Source of the DNA: an uncultured Ignavibacteriales bacterium
GTDB taxonomy: Bacteria > Zixibacteria > MSB-5A5 > GN15 > FEB-12
Assembly (NCBI GenBank): GCA_964464605.1
Contig: CAYXJN010000008.1
Coordinates: forward strand, 62,001 to 126,000
Direction of reading: 5' to 3'
Length of the DNA stretch: 64,000 bases
Below the pieces are notes generated by a model, which made no database searches, was not told the DNA's origin, and saw only the letters and a list, made by a program, of their open reading frames with translations. How positions within the stretch are numbered: the first letter of the stretch is position 1; every line of letters begins with the position of its first letter. This document shows, piece by piece, positions 16,517 through 31,865 of the stretch. A program made the position numbers and the translations under genes.

Positions 16517-17008
16517 GTGTATTCGATAGACGAGCATGATAAAGTAATTGAGTTAAAAGAGTTTCCATTTTGGCCTACAGGAAATCCAATGCCTACGGTA
16601 GTCGTTGATGAACGTTCAACCTTTCTTTGTTATGTAGTTAACGAACTTTATAATCCGAATTTTCTTAAGCTTGACACTGAAATTATTTCTACTTCTGAAG
16701 AAAGCGAACGGTTTGCCATTATATACTTTAATGACTGTGCGGATTTCAAGCTGGGCTATCCGAATGATGAGGGGCTTGATGATCATCCTCTCTATGGGCG
16801 TGGTTTGACCTTCTATGCAGCTCACGAGGTAGTTAACTCTTCCTGGATTCGCCAGGTAGGTTTCTCGTTGGCCAACTACCACCATTATATTTTAACTTTT
16901 AAGGACTCAACGTTTGAGTGTATAGCAACTGGGTTCGAAGTTAAGAAGATTGTTCAAGCAAGTCGAAGCGTGGCAATGGAACAACTGGGCAAACTACTTG
17001 GTGAGTAA
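16517..17008 (+). CDS. Conserved hypothetical protein
   Basis: GYPNDE...HPLYGRGL..Y...EV.NSSWI...FKDSTFEC pattern; GGGGAG RBS; AT-richer than neighbours. Confidence 0.65.
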   Translation: MYSIDEHDKVIELKEFPFWPTGNPMPTVVVDERSTFLCYVVNELYNPNFLKLDTEIISTSEESERFAIIYFNDCADFKLGYPNDEGLDDHPLYGRGLTFYAAHEVVNSSWIRQVGFSLANYHHYILTFKDSTFECIATGFEVKKIVQASRSVAMEQLGKLLGE

Positions 17009-19790: not shown

Positions 19791-20144
19791 ATGCTATTTG
19801 TGGTGATCGGATTATTGGCAGGAGTTTTAGCCGGTATGTTCGGTATCGGCGGCGGAATTATAATTGTACCCGCGCTCACCCTGCTTGCCGGAATGACGTT
19901 TACCAATGCGACCGGCACTTCGCTCGCAGCGCTTTTGCTGCCGGTCGGTATCTTGGGAGTGCTTCAATACTATAAAAACAACCAGGTTAACGTGAACGGA
20001 GCGGCGCTAATAGCACTTGGGTTGATTGGCGGTATCTGGCTCGGGTCTATTTTAGCCACGAAGCTGCCGGCAAAGGATCTGCAGCGTCTTTTTGCGCTCT
20101 TTTTGGTTGTAGTAGCGGTCCGGCTCTGGTTTACCGCCAAATAA
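19791..20144 (+). CDS. Half-size TauE/SafE (sulfite exporter) family protein
   Basis: GVLAGMFGIGGGIIIVP, ATGTSLAALL; about 4 TMs. Confidence 0.85.
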   Translation: MLFVVIGLLAGVLAGMFGIGGGIIIVPALTLLAGMTFTNATGTSLAALLLPVGILGVLQYYKNNQVNVNGAALIALGLIGGIWLGSILATKLPAKDLQRLFALFLVVVAVRLWFTAK

Positions 20145-20149
20145 GGTGC

Positions 20150-20926
20150 TTATTCCAAAGCGGTGTTGGTTGCTTTGCTGCGATGCCATTGCTGAACGGA
20201 GCGGATGGCCTCCAGAACTTTCATGAATTCGTCGTGGCAGTTAACCAGATATTGCGAAAATGAAATTCCGGCCGCATGAAAAACCGGTGCATGGTCGAGC
20301 CAGACAACAAGAATAGCACCATAATATAGTGGGACATGAAAAAGGGTGGCGGCAAGGTCACGAAGCGGCCATCGGTCGCGACGAATAATCGCGAGTCGCT
20401 CGGTTTGAAACCGGATATGGTAATACTCATCTTTGAGAATCTGCTCACACAGAACAGCAAGGACTTTTGACTTTGTCGCTTTCCCTAACGCTTTGTAATA
20501 CACTAATGCAATTGTTTCAGCTACTAAAAGTGTCATAATCATAATTTCGATTGATGCAGCGATACGTCTGACCCGGCGAAACACCCAATCTGAGTATGTC
20601 GAGGCAATTCGCGGAATGTTGTTAATATCCATGAAATGTCCTAAGTCGCGGGAGTGGCGCTGCTCTTCGGCGATAAACAGTTTCACCGCTTCTGCATAAT
20701 CAAGGTCGTTGTAGCGCTCGGCATAGCGCTGGGATGCTAAAATCAGATGCCATCCATCAGACCCTTCGCCAAGCTGAAACTTTTGGATTGAGCTGGTGAT
20801 CGCCTGTTTTTCAACGGGGGTGAGTTCATGCCCCAATTCCCACGGGATAGATAGCAATTGCTGTAAGTTTTTGGAAAAATACTGATTCCACCACTGCGAG
20901 CGCTGGACGGCCCACGTTACCGGCAT
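20150..20926 (-). CDS. Ferritin-like (diiron) domain protein
   Basis: FQLGE, EEQRH, AE...YY, DEYYH (two ExxH). Start reset to ATG 20926 behind an AGGAG RBS. Confidence 0.8.
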   Translation of the reverse strand: MPVTWAVQRSQWWNQYFSKNLQQLLSIPWELGHELTPVEKQAITSSIQKFQLGEGSDGWHLILASQRYAERYNDLDYAEAVKLFIAEEQRHSRDLGHFMDINNIPRIASTYSDWVFRRVRRIAASIEIMIMTLLVAETIALVYYKALGKATKSKVLAVLCEQILKDEYYHIRFQTERLAIIRRDRWPLRDLAATLFHVPLYYGAILVVWLDHAPVFHAAGISFSQYLVNCHDEFMKVLEAIRSVQQWHRSKATNTALE

Positions 20927-21115
20927 ACGGTCTCCTTTGTGTACGGCCGTCGACTCGTATCCTACCATCATTGACTGCAATGACGACCTTGTGACTGTTT
21001 TTTGTTATACGATACCGGGTTCGGGAGTTCCCAAACTTTTTCCAAAATGAAAAAGAAATGCTTTAGGTGTCGAAAGTGTCGTGATCTGAGAAAGGAAACC
21101 GCGGCAATAAGCCGC

Positions 21116-21727
21116 TTATTTTACTTGTACGGTCTGAACGGCTTCGATAGGAACTTGTACTTTTTGCTGTTTTGAATCACGCAGATGCCAATTCCCCTGA
21201 AAGGTCAAGGAAGGCTGTACGAACGTATGATGAACGGTTTTTTTGCTGACGCTGTAGGATGCGTCTATACTTCGCTCCATCATAATCGCTGCTTCGACCA
21301 GCAGTTTGGTAAAAGCAGGGGATTGGTCGCCGGCCGCCGGCTGATTTTCTGCTATTTGTAGTCTGCCGATGATTTCTTCTATCGAGGATGGTAGACTATC
21401 CGTGAGTTTCTGTAACACCTCGTCGATGTGTTCCCGGTACACCTCATTCACCTGGCATTTGGCAAGGTTCATGGCGATAACTACCATTAACGCCTGATGA
21501 ACGCTCAAATCGAATGCCTGTTTTTGCGGAGTTTTCCGGCCAAGCAATACATACCCATGTGCCTGATCGTCAAAATGTACCGGAATGTCGGCATCTTTCA
21601 GGCAAGTGATATATCGAAATGCGGTGCGCTTCGGGATTTCCAGTTCCTGCATGATGGTTTTCATGGGAACAGCTCGATGCGAACCCAAAAGATCCAATAG
21701 TTTGATAATCTTCAGTTGTTTGCTCAT
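21116..21727 (-). CDS. HTH_11 plus degenerate WYL-like transcriptional regulator (PafC/YafY-like, no WCX tail)
   Basis: IMQELEIPKRTAFRYITCLKDADIPV...GYVL; C-terminal AAIMMERSIDASY...P.L.F.GNWHL. Start reset to ATG 21727. Confidence 0.75.
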   Translation of the reverse strand: MSKQLKIIKLLDLLGSHRAVPMKTIMQELEIPKRTAFRYITCLKDADIPVHFDDQAHGYVLLGRKTPQKQAFDLSVHQALMVVIAMNLAKCQVNEVYREHIDEVLQKLTDSLPSSIEEIIGRLQIAENQPAAGDQSPAFTKLLVEAAIMMERSIDASYSVSKKTVHHTFVQPSLTFQGNWHLRDSKQQKVQVPIEAVQTVQVK

Positions 21728-21756
21728 AAGTACTGGCGGTAAAGGGTTTTTATCTG

Positions 21757-21782
21757 GTGGGGGGAACAACTATTCCCCCCAC
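21757..21782. other. Perfect 10-bp stem-loop between the peptide gene and the WYL-like gene
   Basis: GTGGGGGGAA-caacta-TTCCCCCCAC; no U-tract on the minus strand. Confidence 0.7.
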
Positions 21783-21797
21783 ATTCGTGAGAAAATT

Positions 21798-21998
21798 TTA
21801 GAGAACTGCTTGGACGTACATCAGTGAATATGCAACCGATGTGATGTACGGCATTCCGCTCGGTCCCGGCGGCGGCGGCGGTGGTGTTCCGGTTCCATCG
21901 GCATTGGCTAATGATGGAATAGTCAGCGTAACGCTGGCTGCGAACATCACGGCTGCGAGGGTCGTCATCGCGCGACGGGCGAATTGGCGAGTGGTCAT
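21798..21998 (-). CDS. Small secreted proline-rich peptide (66 aa)
   Basis: GGAGG RBS before ATG; Sec signal ending ANA; mature part DGTGTPPPPPPGPSGMPYITSVAYSLMYVQAVL. Confidence 0.78.
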   Translation of the reverse strand: MTTRQFARRAMTTLAAVMFAASVTLTIPSLANADGTGTPPPPPPGPSGMPYITSVAYSLMYVQAVL

Positions 21999-22045
21999 GT
22001 TTCCTCCATGTGTTTGAGGTTGTTGATGTCTTCACATCACATACC

Positions 22046-22060
22046 TCAAACCGCGTGCCA
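22046..22060 (-). promoter_or_regulatory. sigma-54 (-24/-12) promoter
   Basis: Minus strand TGGCAC-GCGGT-TTGA versus consensus TGGCAC-N5-TTGC; 48 bp upstream of the peptide ATG and just downstream of a bEBP gene. Confidence 0.72.
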
Positions 22061-22087
22061 TTCGTTTGGATAGCCGCACAAATGAAG

Positions 22088-22100
22088 GAACTTCTTGATT
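22088..22100. promoter_or_regulatory. IHF-like site
   Basis: Minus strand AATCAAGAAGTTC versus WATCAANNNNTTR (1 mismatch), about 30-40 bp upstream of the -24 box. Confidence 0.45.
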
Positions 22101-22269
22101 TGTTTGTAGTTAGCATGGTCTGCGTAAATGGTAAACTATGGTCGTTTTGCCGCTTCGCTTATCGCATTCCGCAGGGCTGTCGTGCAATGCGATTGTGGTA
22201 CATACTGTTGTATTTGCCGCATGCGAACGGTTAGGAAGCGGCAAATGGCAAGATTGAGGGGTAAAAAAA

Positions 22270-25200
22270 TCACAGGAGACCATACTTCCGTAATTTTCTT
22301 CGCAATGTCGAAAGCGGGATATTGAGCATTCTTGCCATTTCCGACTGATTGTTGCCGCATTTTCTGAGTAAATCAGCCAACATTGCTTTTTCGGCTGCTT
22401 CTGATGATTGCAAATTGTATCGAGATAAGGCCATCGCGACCATCGGTCCTTTTTGTTCTTTCAGCAGATCGATATCGATAATCGTGCCCGGGTGCATGAT
22501 ACAAATGCTTTCCACGAAGTTTTTGAGTTCGCGGACATTGCCCGGCCAGGGGTATGCGTTGAGCAGGTTTTTCACTTCCAGGGTAAAGCGGGGAATAGCG
22601 CTGCCGCCATATACCTCCACAAAATGCTCAAGGAAATGATCAAGCAGTAACGGGATATCACTCTGTCTTTCCCTAAGTGGCGGGATATTAAGGGTGATGG
22701 AAGAAATTCGATAATACAAATCGGGGCTGAATAGTTTTTTTGCGACCATCTCTTCGAGATTCTTATTGGTCGCGCAAATAAAACGTATATCAGTATAGTA
22801 TGTACGGTTCGTTCCCACCGGTTGAAATTCCTGATATTCGATGGCGCGCAAAAGTTTTGCCTGTACGTCCAATGCCATATCACCGATTTCATCTAAGAAT
22901 AATGTCCCGCCATCCGCTGCGGCTAATCTGCCTTCCTGTGCGGCGATCATTGTAGCTGCGCCTTTGACTACACCGAAGAGTGTTGATTCGATTAGTGTTG
23001 GGGGAATGGCCGCACAATTCAGTTTAATCAGCTGACGGTTGCTCCGCTGGCTGCGCCTATGGATATCTTCTGCTATTAGCTCTTTTCCGGTTCCGCTTTC
23101 ACCGCGGAGTACGACAGTAAGATTCGAGGCCGCCGCCCGGGGGAGATGTTCGTATAGTTTCGCGATGGTCGGATCGTTACTGATGAATTTCCATTCGGAT
23201 CGCTGCGAGCGTCCCCGTTCCCGGGATTGCTCACTCTCAATTTTTATTGTGCGGATATCTTGTACGGCGGCGAAGGTCGGAGCGATAAAATTCGCAATCG
23301 CTTTGACGTATTTGACATCATCCTCGCGGAACACACCGGGGATAACGTGATGATCCAAATAGAGCACACCGATCGATTTATTCTGTACGACTAACGGAAT
23401 GACGATAACCGAATGGATGTTGAAGCGCATGATGCTGCTGTACTTATTCGTGCGCACATCTTCCATGGCATTATCGACGACCAGCGGTGTCGGCGTACTC
23501 TCTTTCAATTTTTCGTCGATCAGCGTACGGCTGATATCAGTCGCATCCGCCTGGCTTTGATCGTCACACCCGATTGCGGCAATAACGCGCAGACCGGAGG
23601 CGGTCGACCCGGGGGCCAAAAGAACGCCCCGTTCGGCACCTGATAAATTCACCGCGAAGCGCAATAACGCGTTCAAGGTGCTGGAGTAGTCGGTAATGTT
23701 ATTGAGCAATTCGGATACTGCATGGAACGAGGCTACCAATTCCTCTGTTTGGCCGTTGAGAGTGGAAACGCTCGGTGCTTTTTGGTATGCGATTCCGGAG
23801 AGCAGCGTGTTGCCTAACCCGGCGGAAATCGATTTTGCGAAGCTGGCGTAGCGATATGCTTGCCGGAACCGGTTTTCGCGGTTGAGTAAATCGATCAGTA
23901 CGTTGCAACTGAGAAGCGCAAGAAAACGCTGGTGTCCCTGATTCAGCGTTAAAAATGCCTGCTTCCACGCAAAAATTTCGGCATCGGGCGAAGGGGTGGA
24001 TGCAGCATAGTAATCGCACAGCTTGCTCAACGCAAAAAAAAGCGGGACATTCTCTTCATCGTGAGTTGAAATGAGTGCTTTTGCCTTTTCGGCTGTTTCT
24101 TTGATACGCTGAGCAGGGAACAGGGCTAACAGATAGAAATAGCCGAGGGATGCGTAATACGTGCTTCGATGACGGTGCAAAGTCGAAATGAGCGAGATAA
24201 GTTCGGCTTCGTTTTGCGGCTGGTCATACAATGTTCGGGCTACGAATCGAATAAGCTCCAGTTCGGCGATCGAAGTTTCATCGTTGATTTCCGAAAGCAG
24301 CTCACTTCCTTTTTTAATGTGGGCAAGGCAATTCATCAACTGCCCGCTCATCAATTCCGCTTCAGCGAGGTTGTGATAAAACTTTCCGGTAATGCGACGC
24401 ATTGCCGGCCCATTGCCGAGGGCGAGCCCTTGTGATGCCCAGCGGTGTACGCTGGTAATATCACCTGAGTTTAGTTTCAGGAATGTTTGATACTGCGCGT
24501 GACTGAACAAGTGATAACTGATTGCTTCCGCGTTTGCGATTTCAAGGTATCGCTGCAGCCAATAACCGGCTTTTTTGAATTTCCCCAGACGGACATAGGC
24601 GAACGCCAGTGTATGGTAGGATGACGGGAGCAGCGAATGGTGCTTCTTCGGGTCCATCGAGCGCAGGAATTGCTTGCTGTATGTCAACGCTTTCGAGTAG
24701 CTGCCGACTTCACAGCTTGCCAGTGCGAGTGTGGTGAGTGACGTAACTGCATCGGAAAGCAGGTTCCGCTCGATTCCTTCCTGTACGCTTTGTTCGTAAA
24801 ACGCAATTGCCTGTGGATACTTTCCTTCATGCCACCGCAAGAATCCAAGCACGTACAGTGTTTTGATGACTACTTCGCCGATATTTTGTTTTCGTGATTC
24901 ATCCAGCGTTTCAGTGGCTAACCGTTCCGCTTCCTCGCGGTTCCCCAGTGACATTTCAATCCAGCTGAGCAATTGCTTGAGTCGCAGCGCTTCTGCCTGT
25001 TGATTGGCAGGTACCAGTTCGAGGCCGCGCAACAACGTGCTTTTGGCTTCCTGCCAGCGATTGCCGGAGCGAATTTGTACCAGCGCAAGATCGATTAAAT
25101 GGCTGATTCGTTCGTGTACGGGAAGCGCATTCATGCTGACAAGTGTTCCGAGTATCCGTTCCGCATCGCTATGCATGTAAAGCCGCTGCGAATAATCGGT

Positions 25201-26445
25201 CATGCGGGTAAGCAGTTTCGCGCGGTATTCCGTATCACGCTTTTCGTTACTCTCAAGCTGCGCCAGCGCCGAGGTACAAACGAACAATCCGCTCCAATAA
25301 TGTTCATTCTGCTCATGTTTGTCTGTTTCCGTAATCGCCGTGGCAAGTAGAGCATCCTTGTCGGTAATGGAATCGAGCGGGGTTATCTGTTTGCTGTCTG
25401 TCAGGATTTTGAAGATTTTTTCGCGTGGTATGCCCACATGCCAGTAATCACCCAATTGTTCGATTGAGGAGCGCTGCAATGTTCGCAGCAATGAACGCCA
25501 TGCCGCCGAGCGGTTTCGTTTTGCTTTTTCTTTATGCAGGTCGATAATGTCGGTTGGTATGCCAAAGAGACGGCATTTAACTCTGACAAAATGGTTTGCG
25601 CTGTTTTTCGCCGTCAGCAGATTGGGGGATGAGTTTTTTAAGCATGAATGCAGAAATACCCGCAATACCTGACGGCGTTCTTGTTCGAACGATTTCTTGC
25701 CGCTTTGTTTGTCGACAATCATAAGATCAAGGAGAACGCGAGGACGGCGGTAGCGATCCTCTTCGCTTAGTGTCGCAATCAGCTCCTGCAAATGAATCAG
25801 CGTTTCTTTCGGGATTGGTGACTGTAGCGTTGTCTGTAAAAAATTATCCAGCGACATCTGCAGAGATTTACCGAGCGCATAAACATCGGTTTCGATGTAG
25901 ATGCCTTCATTGCTGATTATCTCCGGTGCAATAAGGCCGAAAGTGCCGATAAGCCGGTTTTCCGGTTTTGAGCCGGTAGGGGTAAGAAAGTCGAGATCTC
26001 CAAGATGCACCCGCAGCTTCGGTCCGGATGTCGTGACGAGAAAATTCTCGATTTTGATATCGCCATGGACGATTTCATGCAGATGCAGGTAGTCGATAAG
26101 CTGGAACATTTGGGGAAGAATCTCTTGGTAGCGGTTCCACAGTATCGCCGGGGTTAGTGCCGTCCAGCTATTTTCCGGATAGAACGGATATTCCAACCCC
26201 TCACGCCCCTCATACGTTACTTTCCGTTTTGCCGTTATTATCTTTTTCCAGTGGAGGGACTTTTGCAGCGACGCAGTTTTTGCCAAGGCTTCCAAACCAA
26301 ATTTGTAGTCTATGTTCTGGCCGAGTAGTTTGAGGAAACAGGGTTTTCCGGAATTTCTCTCTTTGGCGATCCATGAATCGAAGAGATCATTCCTCGTAAT
26401 TTGTCTAACTAACTGGTACAAAACGAGCCTTCCCTTTAGAGCCAC
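22270..26445 (-). CDS. Ser/Thr kinase-like + TPR + GAF + sigma-54 AAA+ + Fis-HTH regulator (1391 aa)
   Basis: [23 protein letters not shown]-like helices; GAERG..SVIVIPL..IGVLYLD (GAF); [47 protein letters not shown]. Confidence 0.9.
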
Positions 26446-26995: not shown

Positions 26996-29900
26996 TTAGA
27001 TAGTTGATATCTCCTTTTCACCAAAGCGTTTATATAAAACCGGGAGAACAATCAGCGTCAATATCGTCGAAGTAAGAATTCCGCCGACAACCACCGTTGC
27101 CAAGGGTCTTTGCACCTCTGATCCGATTCCGGTTGAAAGCGCCATCGGGATGAATCCGACTGCGGCAACCAAGGCTGTCATAAGCACCGGACGTAACCGA
27201 ACCAATGCGCTTTCACGGATTGCGTCTACCAGTCCATGTCCGCTCTCACGCAGTTGGCGTACATACGAAATCAGCACCATACCATTGAGTACCGCGATAC
27301 CGAATAGCGCAATAAATCCTACTCCGGCTGAGATCGAAAACGGCATTCCTCTCATTTCCAATGCAAGAATCCCGCCTAAAGCTGCAAGTGGAACACCGGT
27401 AAAAATCAGTAAGGCGTCCCGAATGGAATGATATGTCATGTACAAAAGACCGAAGATTAACAGCAACGCTAACGGCACCACAATCGCCAGGCGATCTTTT
27501 GCCCGTTCGAGATTTTCAAACTGACCGCCGTAGCGCACATAGTATCCGGCCGGAAGCGAGATCTCCTTGCTGATACGTTCTTCCAGTTCATCGACAAAAC
27601 TTTCGACATCCCGTCCGCGCACATTTGCCTGAATTACCGTACGCCGTTTCGCCCACTCACGGGTGATAGTCGAATATCCGGTTTCAAGTACCGGATGCAC
27701 CAATTGTGTAAGCGGGAGCTGTTTGTTGTCGGATGCCAACCAGAGCCGGGAGACATCTTCCGGTGAACCGTAATAGGTTGTATCAAGCCGCAGCGTTAAA
27801 TCAAAGCGGCGCTGGTCTTCGTAGACTTCACCGACGGTGATACCGCCCATCGCTTCGATATAGGCAAGGACTTCGTTTGCTTTGATTCCATACCGGGCGA
27901 TCTGCTCACGCTGAATGGTCAGCCGCATTTCCGGTTGCCCGGTAAGCTGCTCGGCAGAAACATCGGCTGCACCCGGAATCGATTCAACCAATCGCGTAAT
28001 CTCTTCTGCTTTCGATTCGAGCAATCCCAAATCATCACCGAACAGTTTAATACCGACATCGGCCCGAATTCCGGCAATCATTTCATTCACGCGCATTTCG
28101 ATTGGCTGCGTGAATACCCGGTTGTTACCCGGTAAATCGGAAAGTTCGGCATCCATTTTTTCGACCAGTTCGCTTTGCGTAGATGCTTTCGTCCATCCTG
28201 AACGAGGTTTCAGCGTGATGAACATATCGGTTAGCTCAAGCCCCATTGGGTCGGTTGCTAATTCGGCCGTTCCGACACGGGACCAGACATCGGCGACTTC
28301 ATCAGGAAATCGCTCGATCAATATCTGCTCCATGCGGGAATTGTTATCTACCGATTGCTCGGCAGAAATTCCTGCGAGACGTATGATATTGACCGCAATT
28401 GTTCCTTCACTTAGCCGCGGAATAAATTCACCACCCAAACGAAGGAAAAGAAACCCGCCAAGCAGTAACGCAGCAACACTACCACCGATAACCCAGCGCT
28501 GATGCAACAGCGCTTTGTCCAAAATCGGTTTATAGAGTCTGCGTGACCAGACGACAACTTTCGGTTCTTTTTCCTTGAATGGTTTGGTAAGAAACGTAGC
28601 GATTGCGGCCGGAATAACGGTGAAAGAAAGTATAAGAGACCCGATTAACACAAACACCACCGTCAGTGCCATCGGTCGGAACATTTTCCCTTCGATACCT
28701 TCAAGCGTTAAGACCGGGAGATAAACCAGAATAATAATCAACTCTCCGAATAAAGTCGGTTTGCGTACTTCGAGGATTGCATCTTTGATAACATCAAACC
28801 GAGAACGGCCGTCAGTGTTATGTGAAAGTCGGCGCATTGCGTTTTCGACCTGAATAACGGAATTATCTACCGCCAATCCGAAATCGATAGCACCCAAGCT
28901 CATCAAGCTGCCGACAATTCCGGCGCGGGACATGGCATCGAAGGCAAAGAGCATCGAAAGCGGAATAGAAGACGCTACAATCAATCCGGCGCGAAAGTTT
29001 CCTAAAAAAATAAAGAGGATAGCGATAACGAGCGCCGCACCGAAGAATAGATTATGCGTAACAGTTTCAAGAACCTGATCGACTAAGTCGGTGCGAACAT
29101 AGACCGGCTTAACATCGACACCCGGCGGCAATGTCTTTTTGATTTCTTCCAATTGCGCAGCGAGGCGGGAAGCGACATCATGCGAGTTTTGTCCGGTGAC
29201 CATGAATCCCAGACCGAGCACCGCTTCACCCTGTCCCTGGTAGCTGGCGGCACCGCGACGGATTTCATGACCGACGACCACATCGCCGATATCTTTGACG
29301 CGAATCGGCACATCATGTCGATTCGCAACGACCAGTTCGGCAATCTGTTTTTGCGCAGTTACAATACCGACCCCTTGAACGAGTGTCTGTTCACCGCCGC
29401 GAACTACTTCACCGCCGGAAACGTTGCGAACGCCGGATTCCAGCGCTTCTGCAATTTCGGCAACTGATAGTTTGTATTGTAAAAGCTTGCCCGGATCAAG
29501 CATGACTTGATACTGCTTTTCATATCCACCCCAACTGTTGATTTCAGCAACACCGGGAACGGATTGCAGCTGCGGACGAACCACCCAATCCTGAATGGTG
29601 CGCACTTCGGTTGGATCTTCAAAACGCCCGATGACGACATAATGAAAAATCTCACCGAGTCCAGTCGATACCGGTCCCAAGCGAGGTGCTTCGATGCCGT
29701 GCGGCAGTTCGACGACGGTGAGTCGTTCGGTTACTTGCTGACGGGCGAGATAGATATCTATGTCATCTTCAAAAATGAGCGTCGTTTGGGAAAGCCCATA
29801 TTTGGAAATAGAGCGAAGTTCAGTTAAACCGGTTAAACCGGCCAGTTCCCGTTCGACCGGAAACGTAATCTGGCGCTCGACCTCATCAGGCGCCCATCCC

Positions 29901-30061
29901 GGTGCGGAAACGTTGACTTGCACCATTACCGGCGTGGTATCGGGGAAGGCGTCGAAGGGGAGGCGCAAGAATGCAAATATGCCTACAACGATAAACAGAC
30001 CGGTAAGGGCCAGCACTAAATACCGACGTTGAATCGTAAAATCGATTAATTTTTCCAGCAT
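26996..30061 (-). CDS. czcA: CzcA/CusA family heavy-metal RND efflux permease
   Basis: DAFPDTTPVMVQV, LGPVSTGLGEIF, MSLGAIDFG, GKMFRPMA, RLRPVLMTA, EVQRPLATVV. Confidence 0.92.
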   Translation of the reverse strand: MLEKLIDFTIQRRYLVLALTGLFIVVGIFAFLRLPFDAFPDTTPVMVQVNVSAPGWAPDEVERQITFPVERELAGLTGLTELRSISKYGLSQTTLIFEDDIDIYLARQQVTERLTVVELPHGIEAPRLGPVSTGLGEIFHYVVIGRFEDPTEVRTIQDWVVRPQLQSVPGVAEINSWGGYEKQYQVMLDPGKLLQYKLSVAEIAEALESGVRNVSGGEVVRGGEQTLVQGVGIVTAQKQIAELVVANRHDVPIRVKDIGDVVVGHEIRRGAASYQGQGEAVLGLGFMVTGQNSHDVASRLAAQLEEIKKTLPPGVDVKPVYVRTDLVDQVLETVTHNLFFGAALVIAILFIFLGNFRAGLIVASSIPLSMLFAFDAMSRAGIVGSLMSLGAIDFGLAVDNSVIQVENAMRRLSHNTDGRSRFDVIKDAILEVRKPTLFGELIIILVYLPVLTLEGIEGKMFRPMALTVVFVLIGSLILSFTVIPAAIATFLTKPFKEKEPKVVVWSRRLYKPILDKALLHQRWVIGGSVAALLLGGFLFLRLGGEFIPRLSEGTIAVNIIRLAGISAEQSVDNNSRMEQILIERFPDEVADVWSRVGTAELATDPMGLELTDMFITLKPRSGWTKASTQSELVEKMDAELSDLPGNNRVFTQPIEMRVNEMIAGIRADVGIKLFGDDLGLLESKAEEITRLVESIPGAADVSAEQLTGQPEMRLTIQREQIARYGIKANEVLAYIEAMGGITVGEVYEDQRRFDLTLRLDTTYYGSPEDVSRLWLASDNKQLPLTQLVHPVLETGYSTITREWAKRRTVIQANVRGRDVESFVDELEERISKEISLPAGYYVRYGGQFENLERAKDRLAIVVPLALLLIFGLLYMTYHSIRDALLIFTGVPLAALGGILALEMRGMPFSISAGVGFIALFGIAVLNGMVLISYVRQLRESGHGLVDAIRESALVRLRPVLMTALVAAVGFIPMALSTGIGSEVQRPLATVVVGGILTSTILTLIVLPVLYKRFGEKEISTI

Positions 30062-30070
30062 GGCTCACCC

Positions 30071-31750
30071 TCATGATTTGTGTTCGATGCCGCAGCATCC
30101 GGCGCCAAGACTGGTTTTCATCAATTCCGTTTTTAAAAGAAAACTCCCGTTTACGACAATCAATTCACCGGGCTTGATACCTGAAGTGATGATGTAATGA
30201 TTACGATCTCCGGTCGCGAGCTGGACTTTGCGCGGGCGGAACCGTCCGGATTGTTCCTGAACGAACACTACATTGCAGCAGCCCTCCCATTGCACGGCAT
30301 CACGGGGAACAGCTAAACCAAGACCGCTGCCCTGTTTGGCCTGCATGAAATGCGCAGTACCGAAGCGGTTTGCCACCATGCCGCCGTTATGCTCAAGCGG
30401 TCGCGCGCGAACCGTAATGGTGCGGGTATCAGGATCGACAAACGGCGCAACCCAGAAGATTTCGGCGGGTAGACGATGTAAGTTGCTCCCATCGACACTG
30501 AATTCGATGCGCTGGCCGGGTGCGGCGTATTCGGCATACTGCTCGTGCAGATGCGCTTCTACCCAGAGCTTATCTGGATCACCGGTAAGAGCGATCATGG
30601 TTCCTTCTTCAAGCCGTGCACCCAGCGCTGCTTTACGCTCTAAAAGCACACCTTTTGATGCGCTGCGAATCAGCCATCGAGAGGAGGCGGAGCGGGAGCG
30701 CTCCAGTTCAAGAATGTCAGCTTCGGAAAGACCCGCTGCTTTTAGTTCACCCGCGATACCGTTTGCCAGACTCAACGCGCTATTGGCTTCCCCTTCAAGA
30801 AGTTCCAGTTCCGCTTTGCTGATAAGCTGGCGTTTGAACATGCTATCCGCACGGGTAAGACGCAACCGCGCCGGTTCCGCCATAGCTAAGGCCTGCAGGT
30901 ATTCACCTTGCAACTTCGCCATATCCTGCGATTCGACCTGTGCGATCGGTGTTTCTATAGAAACGGACGCACCCGGCTCCAACAGCCAGCGAAGCACGGT
31001 GATCGGTACGGAGGATGTAACCGCTGTTGCGTTAGTTTCATCGAAGATCAATTCACCGGGTGCATCGATGGTATATGCGCGAGAAGCTTCCAGCGCCGGG
31101 ATAACGGAGATACCGGTTCGTTCCGCGGTTTCGGCGGAAGCGAACTGGATAATGGCATCATCCGTAGCACAGGCGGGAGCGTTGACACGCAAAAGAACAG
31201 TCGGTGGTTCGACTGTTTCTGTAAAATCACCTAAAACAGATTTCGGTTCTTGCGGAAAACTGATTCCCGGATTGCATAAACGGCAATGCGATTCCGGAAT
31301 ACCGTGCTCAGTACACCAGTCATTATTCGCTTTGAACTCGGCGATTAAAGCCGAATTGCACTGGGTACAGACAGATTCCGGTACCCGATGCTCTGCACAC
31401 CAATCGGCAGTAGCGGTTGAGATGCCGTGACTCGCAATATGTTCTTCTTCCGGAAAGGTTAATCCCGGATTACAGAGTCGGCAGTGAGATTCCGGAATAC
31501 CGTGCTCGGTACACCAGTCATTTTTTTCTTTGAAACCTTCGATCAATGCCGGGTTGCACTGGGTACATACAGACTCAGGTACCCGGTGTTCTGCGCACCA
31601 ATCATGACTATGACCACCGTCAGATACTTGGCTTACTTCCGTATGCGTAGCCGTGTCGGGTGAATCACTGAGCAGCCATTTGCTTCCCAGCGCACCGACC
31701 ACCACGGCAGCGAGTACCAGTATGACAGTTCGTATGGTATGTTTCGACAT
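30071..31750 (-). CDS. CzcB-like RND periplasmic adaptor with N-terminal Cys/His repeats
   Basis: TM anchor, MFP motifs (LWVEA, VDPDTRT..VRA, VPRDAV, GSFLLK). Start reset to ATG 31750. Confidence 0.88.
   Translation of the reverse strand: MSKHTIRTVILVLAAVVVGALGSKWLLSDSPDTATHTEVSQVSDGGHSHDWCAEHRVPESVCTQCNPALIEGFKEKNDWCTEHGIPESHCRLCNPGLTFPEEEHIASHGISTATADWCAEHRVPESVCTQCNSALIAEFKANNDWCTEHGIPESHCRLCNPGISFPQEPKSVLGDFTETVEPPTVLLRVNAPACATDDAIIQFASAETAERTGISVIPALEASRAYTIDAPGELIFDETNATAVTSSVPITVLRWLLEPGASVSIETPIAQVESQDMAKLQGEYLQALAMAEPARLRLTRADSMFKRQLISKAELELLEGEANSALSLANGIAGELKAAGLSEADILELERSRSASSRWLIRSASKGVLLERKAALGARLEEGTMIALTGDPDKLWVEAHLHEQYAEYAAPGQRIEFSVDGSNLHRLPAEIFWVAPFVDPDTRTITVRARPLEHNGGMVANRFGTAHFMQAKQGSGLGLAVPRDAVQWEGCCNVVFVQEQSGRFRPRKVQLATGDRNHYIITSGIKPGELIVVNGSFLLKTELMKTSLGAGCCGIEHKS
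31249..31603 (-). repeat. Tandem duplication (198-nt period) encoding DWCxEHxxPESxCxxCN modules
   Basis: DWCAEHRVPESVCTQCN...DWCTEHGIPESHCRLCNPG occurs twice. Confidence 0.9.
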
Positions 31751-31865
31751 TATTCGTAATCGCCTTTCTTTTTTTACCATGACAAAAGCAATCACCGTGA
31801 ACGCAGTAACGCACGGATAAGAGAGCTTTGCTGTTTACGTGTAAGTGAGAAATTGAGAAACGAAA

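Follow-up and report, generated by a model that had tools for sequence, protein, structure and literature searches.

What is gained by placing a large sigma-54-dependent activator, a gene for a very small exported protein and a gene for a short regulator one behind the other, and does the small protein report back to the activator? This question is raised by a locus in a 64,000-nucleotide (nt) stretch of DNA (assembly GCA_964464605.1, contig CAYXJN010000008.1, positions 62,001-126,000 of the forward strand), called the window below, in whose numbering positions are given unless another contig is named. The cassette occupies window positions 21116-26445 and consists of three co-oriented open reading frames (ORFs) on the minus strand, at 22270-26445 (1391 amino acids, aa), 21798-21998 (66 aa) and 21116-21769 (217 aa when begun at a TTG). 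A preliminary description of this DNA had reported three co-oriented genes, and ORF listing and translation agree with it. Sequence comparison indicates that the three-gene module is real and conserved in Zixibacteria, beyond what chance would give. We read it, tentatively and with slightly less than even confidence, as a self-contained sigma-54 cascade with one extracytoplasmic (envelope or extracellular) and one cytoplasmic output. The genes are the following.

22270-26445, minus strand: gene of the 1391-aa enhancer-binding protein (the activator), from its ORF, translation, Pfam and NCBIfam domains and a 100% identical database protein (P0004)
21798-21998, minus strand: small ORF of 66 aa, from its translation, family alignment A2 and motif counts
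21116-21727, minus strand: short gene with helix-turn-helix (HTH) and WYL-like parts, 203 aa from the ATG at 21727, alternatively 217 aa from the TTG at 21769

The activator gene begins with GTG, and the public gene call gives a protein of 1383 aa that starts 8 codons later. For the HTH-WYL gene, the family alignment favours the ATG at 21727 (203 aa). The source genome comprises 2.8 Mb in 18 contigs, is 100% complete by marker genes, and encodes 14 sigma-54 activators and a single rpoN.

Conservation of the module

Long-form homologues of the activator were found in 22 of 40 relatives (E-value 1.9e-131 or better, 29-38% identity), twice in one genome. A small ORF of the same build lies downstream of the activator in all 20 loci that were fetched, the window's own included, and an HTH gene of about 204 aa follows 1-70 nt past the small ORF in 19 of them. 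The exception, L020 (G013:C1:1-7090), carries the activator and the small ORF but no HTH-WYL gene; its next ORF, of 119 aa, may hold a remnant of the HTH-WYL protein's C-terminal part. The synteny expected from the preliminary description, with a small signal-peptide ORF, a sigma-54-type box and an HTH-WYL gene near homologous activators, is therefore found again and again (20/20, 37/42 and 19/20, respectively), and homologous activators standing apart from any small secreted ORF or sigma-54 box are not the pattern observed.

Furthermore, a profile of the HTH protein was scanned against one genome per species (185,579 species) and returned 80 loci. All 33 loci with a short HTH gene (profile score of at least 146 bits) carry the cassette: the activator is present in 33 of 33, with the L029 copy cut at the contig end, and the small-ORF profile matches 32, the small ORF of the last one, L036, having been found by reading the frame. 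The remaining 47 loci hold mostly longer paralogues of about 311-340 aa with lower scores. When the flanking ORFs were clustered, no further gene family occurred in more than 5 of the 33 loci, so that the module appears self-contained and set in changing neighbourhoods.

The loci are mostly labelled Candidatus Zixiibacteriota, with some metagenome-assembled genomes labelled otherwise, for example as Ignavibacteriales. Among Zixibacteria genomes, 92 of 285 (about a third) have a match at an E-value of 1e-30 or better, including 48 of 107, 20 of 33 and 12 of 21 genomes in the three main families. Three of the weakest of these matches have open frames measuring 318-335 aa and are probably long paralogues. 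The distribution is patchy within genera (for instance 1 of 5 and 2 of 5 genomes in two of them), and two genomes carry two copies.

Promoter- and enhancer-like elements in the spacer

The activator and the small ORF are separated by 271 nt in the window and by a nearly constant 224-282 nt, with conserved blocks, across the relatives' loci. The spacer of about 270 bp with inverted repeats given in the preliminary description was thus recovered, in the form of a palindrome with 17-nt arms and an 11-nt inverted copy. The elements in the window are listed from the activator side.

22212-22251, minus strand: putative upstream activator site 1, a TTGCC direct repeat (22239-22251) in a palindrome with 17-nt arms, TTTGCCGC ... 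GCGGCAAA, from inverted-repeat pair I2 and the conserved repeats
22146-22156, minus strand: putative upstream activator site 2, GAAGCGGCAAA, a perfect 11-nt inverted copy of one site-1 arm, from inverted-repeat pair I3
22088-22100, minus strand: IHF-like AATCAAGAAGTTC, with one mismatch to WATCAANNNNTTR, from the sequence
22046-22060, minus strand: sigma-54-type -24/-12 box TGGCAC-N5-TTTGA, from the sequence and a positional test across spacers
22002-22021, minus strand: 5' untranslated region with a AACCTCAAAC block (22012-22021) and a GGAGGA ribosome-binding site (22002-22007), from the alignment consensus and leader folds

The box was evaluated by its position in 42 distinct spacers (from 51 pooled from both locus sets), with control windows of equal length. 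GG-N8-TTG ends 43-66 nt before the start codon of the small ORF in 37 of the 42 spacers, compared with 426 of 8400 control windows (5.1%) from the activator coding sequence and 16 of 297 in the upstream spacer, and the -24/-12 box noted earlier before the small gene is well supported by this contrast. A best-match scan for the canonical TGGCAC-N5-TTGC anywhere in the spacer was dropped in favour of the positional test, as competition from the TTGCC repeats made it noisy. A simple scan gave no sigma-70-like promoter match on the spacer's coding strand.

In the MAFFT alignment of the spacers, the blocks run in the order TTGCC pair, GGCAA copies, two CAA-N4-TTA, yGGCAy-N5-TTGa/t, a pyrimidine-rich CCTCC-like stretch, AAcCTCAAAc and GGAGG. 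The TTGCC pair, conserved across loci, stands 10-25 nt past the activator stop codon with its members spaced 7-8 nt, and is followed by GGCAA, of which copies are found about 30-45 nt and about 95-115 nt into the spacer, the latter clustering in many loci. In the window, the palindrome itself spans 22212-22246, and site 2 lies 78 nt beyond it. These TTGCC/GGCAA repeats are likely to be the enhancer, as judged from their sequence and placement. TTGCC-N2-3-TTGCC occurs 24 times in the genome, and only the cassette's own repeat has GGYA-N6-TTG within the next 330 nt, which suggests that the operon may be the activator's only direct target.

The IHF-like site is a weaker case. The preliminary description had proposed such a site here, and one is present with a single mismatch to the IHF consensus WATCAANNNNTTR; across loci, CAM-N4-TTR occurs at two preferred distances in 14 of 41 loci each, compared with 3.3% of control windows, but the window's own copy fails this strict pattern. 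The genome has only one gene of the HU/IHF family (C6:305616-305882).

The GGAGGA ribosome-binding site lies five bases ahead of the small-ORF ATG. Leaders are more stable than their shuffled versions in single-sequence folds (mean z -0.97, n=37), and at least three of the four Shine-Dalgarno bases are paired in 17 of 37 leaders, often with the very 5' end. RNAalifold returned no consensus structure for the leaders because their alignment is poor. In the window, an inverted repeat at 22012-22051, whose 18-nt arms are 83% complementary and 4 nt apart, brings together the -12 region (GTTTGAGG...) and the AACCTCAAAC block; it spans the expected start site and may therefore act at the level of DNA and not as an RNA hairpin. 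By visual inspection, repeats of this type are not general in other loci.

The activator and its variant L1 loop

The kinase-TPR-GAF-sigma54 architecture assigned to the activator in the preliminary description was confirmed by Pfam, which places Pkinase at 104-285, TPR at about 470-700, GAF at 921-1055, Sigma54_activat at 1088-1252, then AAA_lid_14, and HTH_8 at 1349-1388. Among NCBIfam models, NifA and NorR score best, each falling far short of its cut-off, and no membrane segment is seen in the 1391-aa protein. Its parts are encoded as follows.

25576-26445, minus strand: kinase-like domain (aa 1-290), from Pfam Pkinase 104-285 (E 1.1e-13) and family alignments
23731-25575, minus strand: small alpha/beta unit and a TPR-like solenoid of about 26 helices (aa 291-905), from Pfam TPR_12, TPR_2 and TPR_MalT, AlphaFold2 and Foldseek
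23281-23691, minus strand: GAF domain (aa 919-1055) directly before the AAA+ core, from Pfam GAF/GAF_2/GAF_3 and invariant columns
22456-23184, minus strand: sigma-54 interaction AAA+ domain with lid (aa 1088-1330), from PF00158, AAA_lid_14 and alignment
22945-22962, minus strand: L1 loop (aa 1162-1167), G-A-A-T-M-I replacing GAFTGA, from alignment
22282-22401, minus strand: C-terminal Fis-type HTH_8 DNA-binding domain (aa 1349-1388), from Pfam HTH_8 (E 4.9e-12)

The AAA+ core matches PF00158 with 193.8 bits against a cut-off of 20.2, and Walker A, Walker B, the arginine fingers and the sensor motifs, sensor II included, are intact in the 37 aligned family members. A DNA-binding domain, upstream repeats, a -24/-12-type box and one rpoN in the genome complete, at the level of sequence, the set expected for an enhancer-binding protein. 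The GAFTGA motif seen in bacterial enhancer-binding proteins, however, is altered throughout the clade, a point overlooked by the preliminary description: all 37 members have x-x-A-T-G-V in L1 (clade form x-A-A-T-G-V), with the Thr invariant and the Phe replaced by Ala. All 13 other sigma-54 activators of the same genome retain Phe-Thr.

In PspF, according to PMC3467059, Phe85 and Thr86 of GAFTGA touch sigma-54 at its region I, the motif is described as highly conserved, and no open complex arises with variants in which any one of the last five loop positions bears a cross-linker residue (Table 1 of that paper). The clade-wide change from Phe to Ala raises the possibility that the activator in fact binds the repeats as a repressor or a sigma-54 anti-activator, with another activator or sigma factor driving the operon, and the PspF variants and the retention of Phe-Thr in the genome's other 13 activators lend this some weight. 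We nevertheless consider it very improbable. Conserved Walker A and B motifs, arginine fingers and sensor II would be needless in a mere DNA-binding repressor, the loop Thr is invariant, and the repeats stand some 100-200 nt upstream of the box, where an enhancer would be expected rather than an operator. Moreover, in the larger relatives described below the variant loop occurs together with a textbook sigma-54 promoter.

The N-terminal parts of the activator are presumably where signals enter. The kinase-like domain retains Lys39, His-x-Asp129, Lys131, Asn134, Asp150/152 (with DLDF replacing DFG) and Ala-Pro-Glu, and the catalytic residues of Hanks-type kinases, K39, D129, N134, D150/D152 and P174-E175, vary little or not at all among 37 sequences. 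The glycine-rich ATP loop and the alpha-C Glu of this kinase type are missing, with L-S-E-N-x-L-x-Q-S-W in place of the loop and Gln61 at alpha-C. The TPR region gave an AlphaFold2 model (pLDDT 89.8, pTM 0.88) of a solenoid that we presume to be a sensor or scaffold; its Pfam match to TPR_MalT is weak. An exhaustive profile search with the sensor region (aa 290-905) gave about 125 single-stretch full-length matches among the best 150 representatives (at 50% identity) listed, nearly all at residues of about 285-915 in proteins of 1320-1460 aa; the other matches are multi-stretch TPR proteins. In the GAF domain, Cys960, Asp961, Asp1031 and His1032 are invariant and His1033 nearly so among 37 family members. 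The GAF domain of NorR carries a metal centre. The similar placement of the Cys/Asp/His cluster, in a GAF domain before an AAA+ core, hints by analogy at a metal or gas ligand.

The small protein and its predicted export

The preliminary description had a 66-aa secreted polyproline peptide encoded next to the activator, and this is supported by the signal-peptide pattern, the proline run and the adjacency of the ORF in all 20 loci. In the window, the protein has a basic N-terminus, a hydrophobic core, Pro at -6, Ala-x-Ala and a predicted cut before Asp-Gly, after which come a hexaproline run and a 16-residue hydrophobic C-terminus, giving a predicted mature form of 33 aa. Motifs were counted in 46 members, 43 from Zixibacteria and 3 from the larger form. 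With a pattern of basic n-region, hydrophobic h-region, small residue at -3 and Ala/Gly/Ser at -1, a site of the Sec/signal peptidase I type was matched in all 46, at a late and doubtful place in L051. The median mature length is 48.5 residues, 40 of the 46 have Pro-Pro no more than 25 residues past the predicted start of the mature form, and an Asp or Glu followed by a mostly hydrophobic stretch of 8-15 residues reaching the C-terminus is present in 38 of the 46. The best-conserved mature parts are N-terminal, namely Asp-Gly, Pro-Pro and Asp-Ser/Thr-Thr-Gly, the last of which the window's protein lacks.

The family matches none in Pfam or NCBIfam, and no paralogue was found in the source genome beyond a chance-level match at E 0.3. 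A search of the ESM Atlas gave no named family; the nearest cluster there, with 87 unnamed members and commonest in Zixibacteria, may be the small protein's own family. Two other roles were rejected. Against a ribosome-arrest leader stands the position of Pro-Pro, which follows the signal peptide by no more than some 10 residues, a distance too small for a pulling-force sensor; and for a PEP-CTERM, GlyGly-CTERM or type IX secretion system (T9SS) sorting signal, the tail is too short, without a basic cluster or a C-terminal domain.

Evidence on a possible peptide feedback

In the preliminary description, the exported and processed peptide might feed back through the TPR array, as in RRNPP regulators. 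This is not supported so far: an OppA-type importer is lacking, the solenoid is generic and co-variation is weak. Peptide-to-TPR feedback remains a minority reading. In its full form, a processed C-terminal tail would re-enter the cell, bind the TPR region and switch the AAA+ part on or off, forming a sigma-54 quorum-sensing loop like RRNPP or Rgg-SHP systems, and we regard such autoinduction as unlikely.

The arrangement itself invites the comparison, as the TPR protein and the signal-peptide ORF are strictly adjacent, the small ORF is always present, and it lies under what would be the activator's own promoter. The predicted tail also resembles SHP pheromones in form, with the acidic residue and hydrophobic C-terminal stretch counted above in 38 of 46 members. 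According to PMC3679016, mature streptococcal SHPs correspond to their precursor's C-terminal part, begin with Asp or Glu and need the Ami oligopeptide permease. This parallel is weakened by the window's own small protein, which has no acidic residue, and by the conservation of the N-terminal mature parts, which would be unusual for a mere pro-region.

Since the activator has no membrane segment, an exported peptide would need re-import. In the 100%-complete genome, a binding protein of the OppA/DppA family (PF00496) had no match, compared with positives in 11 of 14 control genomes, and neither PTR2 nor SbmA was found; the Opp/Ami route on which SHP signalling depends is therefore lacking. The genome does encode one OPT-family oligopeptide transporter (C4:253219-254964). 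The host organism is presumably diderm, and a peptide would then have two membranes to cross twice.

As a receptor, the activator is neither of the HTH-TPR nor of the phosphatase-TPR kind, having instead the order kinase-like/TPR/GAF/AAA+/HTH_8. Foldseek matched the TPR model to generic long solenoids only (IFT-A, APC/C, Ski3, OGT, LGN, DdvA), with no RRNPP receptor among the matches listed at ranks 1-49. A complex prediction of activator aa 1-905 with the predicted mature small protein (score 0.01, mark 0.32) weighs neither for nor against binding.

Co-variation between the TPR region and the peptide, which the preliminary description had proposed to measure, turned out to be weak and not specific. 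After removal of the AAA+ signal, partial Mantel correlations with tail distance were 0.23 for the linker, 0.17 for TPR, 0.15 for the kinase-like domain, 0.11 for GAF and 0.01 for HTH_8, so that the tail follows linker and TPR slightly better than the AAA+ core; these values are confounded, and inflated, by shared ancestry. In a genome with two cassettes, the copies share 43% identity in the kinase-like domain, 44% in TPR, 44% in HTH_8 and 70% in the AAA+ core, and their upstream repeats differ. Such divergence of sensors, peptides, HTH_8 domains and repeats is what orthogonal, insulated channels would show, but ordinary paralogue drift would show it too.

The short HTH-WYL regulator

Pfam WYL has no match to the window's third protein, and HTH_11 is weak there (E 3.3e-3) and stronger in relatives. 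The HTH-WYL assignment made in the preliminary description, invisible to Pfam, is supported on three other grounds. An AlphaFold2 model from 19 sequences (pLDDT 86.8) has a winged helix (three helices with a wing of two strands), then four linker helices, and at residues 154-202 a WYL-like barrel of six strands, and Foldseek matches it best, among solved structures, to DriD, PafBC, BrxR and CapW (probability 1.00, E 1e-5 to 1e-3). The WYL model of PADLOC gives E 1.3e-8. Lastly, hhalign aligns the Zixibacteria HTH profile end to end with the Pfam-positive protein (WYL at 37.9 bits) of L109, a locus of the larger form (99.3%, E 2e-20, 196 columns). The protein ends with the barrel at residue 203 and so has no WCX domain, whereas the four long paralogues scanned (311-317 aa, from related loci) are composed of HTH_11, WYL and WCX. 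Many Zixibacteria loci (L057, L063, L064, L075, L081, L085, L086, L091, L097, L100 and L101) pair, in tandem, a 315-340-aa HTH_11-WYL-WCX gene with a 207-248-aa HTH_11/HTH_PafC gene that lacks WYL; the tandem is PafB/PafC-like and unrelated to the cassette.

The gene is the likely second cistron, judging from its position 1-70 nt behind the small ORF. Two elements flank it.

21757-21782, minus strand: G/C-rich stem-loop of 11 bp without a U tract, between the small ORF and the HTH-WYL gene, from a fold of the inter-cistronic stretch
21091-21115, minus strand: terminator-like hairpin GCGGC-TTATT-GCCGC with a T-rich tail, directly 3' of the HTH-WYL stop codon

In a simple scan of the cassette, a terminator-like hairpin occurs after the HTH-WYL gene only. 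A G-run/C-run stem comparable to the inter-cistronic one follows the small-ORF stop codon in 11 of 19 folds, by reading of the folds; it could be an attenuator, or it could stabilise the mRNA, and so set the proportion in which the two products are made.

The HTH-WYL protein's closest relatives of solved structure are linked to damage or defence, which brings up a stress or defence switch, in which the kinase/STAND-like/TPR sensor would detect phage or envelope damage and induce a membrane-active small effector together with a WYL regulator of the defence-island type. We judge this decidedly unlikely. Patchy occurrence within genera (92 of 285 genomes overall), variable genomic context and the two copies in some genomes agree with it, but PADLOC reports domain-level matches only (RtcR-type AAA+, PD-T4-6/mad6 kinases, WYL) and no system, and in the window the cassette is surrounded not by a defence island but by genes for an RND pump, a sulfatase and transporters. 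The larger relatives do have an AAA_16 STAND-type NTPase before TPR, and an SNF2/ResIII helicase gene lies downstream in L104. The small protein has two hydrophobic segments, as an effector might; of these, however, the N-terminal one carries a canonical cleavage site and the C-terminal one, of about 10-16 residues, is short for a membrane span. A response made of sigma-54 transcription only would also be slow for abortive infection.

A larger four-gene form

A word-based protein search with aa 1-905 of the activator found three proteins of 1659-1675 aa, with a canonical kinase, an AAA_16 NTPase, TPR (TPR_MalT), GAF, the sigma-54 domain and HTH_8, and with K-A-A-T-G-V in L1. The kinase of the 1675-aa relatives keeps the glycine loop, as G-S-G-G-I-G, and the window's activator looks like a reduced form of these proteins. 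Four metagenome contigs (L104, L108, L109 and L110, with no taxon assigned) encode the larger activator with a like gene order. Their spacer has a canonical GGCAY-N5-TTGCA box. Their small ORF has 67-70 aa, with its frame broken near the end in L109; the signal peptide it encodes ends in Ala, Asp-Gly comes next, and the product also has a run of prolines and a hydrophobic tail. The third protein of the cassette has 203-205 aa, with HTH_11 and with Pfam WYL at 34.6-37.9 bits (L104 and L109 scanned) against a cut-off of 21.8. L108 ends inside the preceding gene, so the HTH-WYL gene is seen in the other three contigs only. This like linkage suggests that the connection of activator, box, small protein and HTH-WYL regulator is older than its Zixibacteria form.

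The larger form has an extra gene between the small ORF and the HTH-WYL gene, for a degenerate AAA+ protein of 246-256 aa, located as follows.

L104:8601-9371, gene of the degenerate AAA+ protein
L109:8622-9362, the same
L110:8583-9323, the same
L108:6695-7444, the same

Walker A is present in this protein as G-E-S-G-V-G-K, as is a lid domain; L1 is missing and Walker B is weak. The protein does not occur in the Zixibacteria form and may be a partner subunit of the big activator. L109 and L110 are closely related contigs, and in both the HTH-WYL gene is followed, after about 760-840 nt, by a gene for a secreted subtilase of the Peptidase_S8 family (L109:10745-12277 and L110:10780-11898, the latter with a fervidolysin-like prodomain), at the place where L104 has the SNF2/ResIII helicase gene. 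Its presence may be a coincidence, or it may be a processing protease.

A proposed sigma-54 cascade with two outputs

The preliminary description had the activator driving its own downstream peptide gene, with the WYL-like protein as a second output. Sequence and comparison of the loci show which parts there are, in what order they stand and how they are conserved, and also the motifs of promoter and enhancer; activation by this activator and co-transcription of the two genes we infer. In such a cascade, the cytoplasmic activator would integrate intracellular inputs through its kinase-like, TPR and GAF domains, and its HTH_8 domain would bind the TTGCC/GGCAA repeats at the 3' end of its own gene. 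From there, the AAA+ ring would open the sigma-54 promoter (GGCA-N7-TTG) about 190 nt downstream of the repeats, giving a transcript with a structured leader and two encoded outputs. The first would be the small pre-protein, which Sec would export and signal peptidase I would cleave ahead of Asp-Gly; its mature form would be an acidic, proline-rich, disordered peptide with a hydrophobic C-terminal tail, acting in the envelope or outside the cell. The second output, reached by read-through of the stem-loop, would be the short HTH-WYL regulator, which might relay the signal to other genes or back onto the cassette. Export, cleavage and the roles of both outputs are thus predicted features of the scheme, which needs no peptide re-import.

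Several observations weigh against this cascade. Canonical activation is not assured because the activator's L1 loop is without the GAFTGA Phe that contacts sigma-54 in PspF. The -12 element is mostly TTGA or TTGT, with TTGC in few Zixibacteria copies, and in the window it is TTGA, not TTGC; this seems not to be special to the cassette, since the ten other intergenic TGGCAY-N5-TTG sites of the genome show a like mix (4 TTGC, 5 TTGT and 1 TTGA). The assignment of the small protein to export derives from a pattern match, and the window's own copy is the shortest of the family, with no acidic residue before its tail. The stem-loop behind the small ORF could equally end most transcripts before the HTH-WYL gene. 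Finally, support from RNA libraries comes down to a single 154-nt contig of a metatranscriptome library, identical to 21737-21890 (the 3' half of the small ORF and the stem-loop); it is a weak hint of expression, as DNA can occur in such a library.

Relation to known systems

The cassette shares features with several regulatory classes. With activators of the NifA/NorR/FhlA type it has in common a GAF domain directly before the sigma-54 AAA+ core and a Fis-type HTH, and upstream repeats with a -24/-12 box at the target. It differs in about 900 extra N-terminal residues (kinase-like and TPR), in x-A-A-T-G-V instead of GAFTGA in L1, and in its target, a small exported protein and a WYL regulator rather than a metabolic operon. 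The RRNPP/Rgg-SHP systems of Bacillota likewise place a cytoplasmic TPR protein beside a small ORF for an exported product, here a predicted one with an SHP-like tail, the ORF being presumably driven by the regulator. The cassette's TPR protein, however, is a sigma-54 activator and not an HTH-TPR or phosphatase-TPR protein, belongs to another phylum and has a fold that is not specifically RRNPP-like; its genome has no Opp/Ami-type binding protein.

DriD, PafBC, CapW and BrxR share with the cassette's regulator the winged HTH, the helical linker and the WYL barrel, and its relatives pass the Pfam WYL cut-off; the cassette protein differs in its length of about 204 aa, its lack of WCX and its place behind a sigma-54-type promoter and a gene for a small secreted protein. 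Regulators of the PknK/MalT/AfsR class combine a Ser/Thr kinase, an AAA_16 NTPase and a MalT-like TPR. The 1675-aa relatives resemble such STAND-type kinase regulators in having Pkinase, AAA_16 and TPR_MalT before GAF-AAA+-HTH, whereas the window's protein has neither the NTPase nor the glycine-rich loop of the kinase, and the output is a sigma-54 AAA+ motor instead of a LuxR- or SARP-type DNA-binding domain. MgrB exemplifies small membrane or periplasmic feedback proteins of signalling systems. The cassette similarly has a tiny exported or membrane protein under the control of a regulator that this protein possibly modulates, but it has no membrane sensor, and the analogy is one of logic only, with no sequence or structural relation.

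The preliminary description knew of no system combining these parts, and our full-text literature searches agree. No description of the cassette or of the variant L1 loop was found in the full-text literature, a search outside of which lay supplements and subscription journals. Queries on Zixibacteria with sigma-54 found nothing, those on enhancer-binding proteins with TPR and kinase domains nothing relevant, and those on RRNPP with sigma-54 unrelated work only; for the WYL domain with sigma54, titles and abstract openings concerned mostly RtcR and CARF/WYL topics, with none on the cassette.

A conserved and compact regulatory module is thereby defined in a phylum without cultured, genetically tractable members, and it is small enough to be rebuilt in the test tube or in E. 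coli. It includes a whole clade of sigma-54 activators without the GAFTGA Phe, a residue held central for sigma-54 contact, that nonetheless stand before well-formed -24/-12 boxes. Should the variant-loop proteins be activators, the rule accepted for this contact would have to be widened; otherwise they would form a new class of AAA+ repressors or partners. As a TPR activator is strictly paired with a small exported protein, the long-standing question whether peptide signals are read in the cytoplasm outside Bacillota also becomes directly testable. A complete sigma-54 peptide-pheromone circuit, in which the tail peptide is read by TPR, acts through the variant-L1 activator clade and is spread to the genome by the HTH-WYL protein, is in our estimate quite unlikely; if true, it would be the first RRNPP-like cell-cell signalling that is both sigma-54-dependent and outside Bacillota. 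In addition, the module appears to add a short, WCX-less form of WYL regulator and to place it under sigma-54 control.

Neighbouring genes and occurrence in metagenomes

Upstream of the activator, after a 550-nt gap, genes for an AcrB-type RND efflux pump of 1021 aa and a membrane-fusion protein of 574 aa lie at 26996-31795 on the minus strand; the adjacency of this pair is not kept at other cassette loci. The same applies to a 276-aa ORF without a Pfam family that lies directly downstream of the cassette (20150-20980, minus strand). On the plus strand, a 163-aa ORF without a Pfam family is found at 16517-17008, and a 117-aa ORF at 19791-20144 covers no more than positions 129-237, the C-terminal half, in the 237-position TauE/SafE sulfite-exporter profile, being either a truncated gene or one whose start was called too late.

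DNA near-identical to window positions 21050-22350 (at least half of the sampled words) occurs in 19 public runs, from bioreactor, activated-sludge, sludge, aquaculture and rhizosphere metagenomes; the assembly may itself derive from eleven of them. The 20 holders of near-identical cassette DNA among public runs come from 9 studies.

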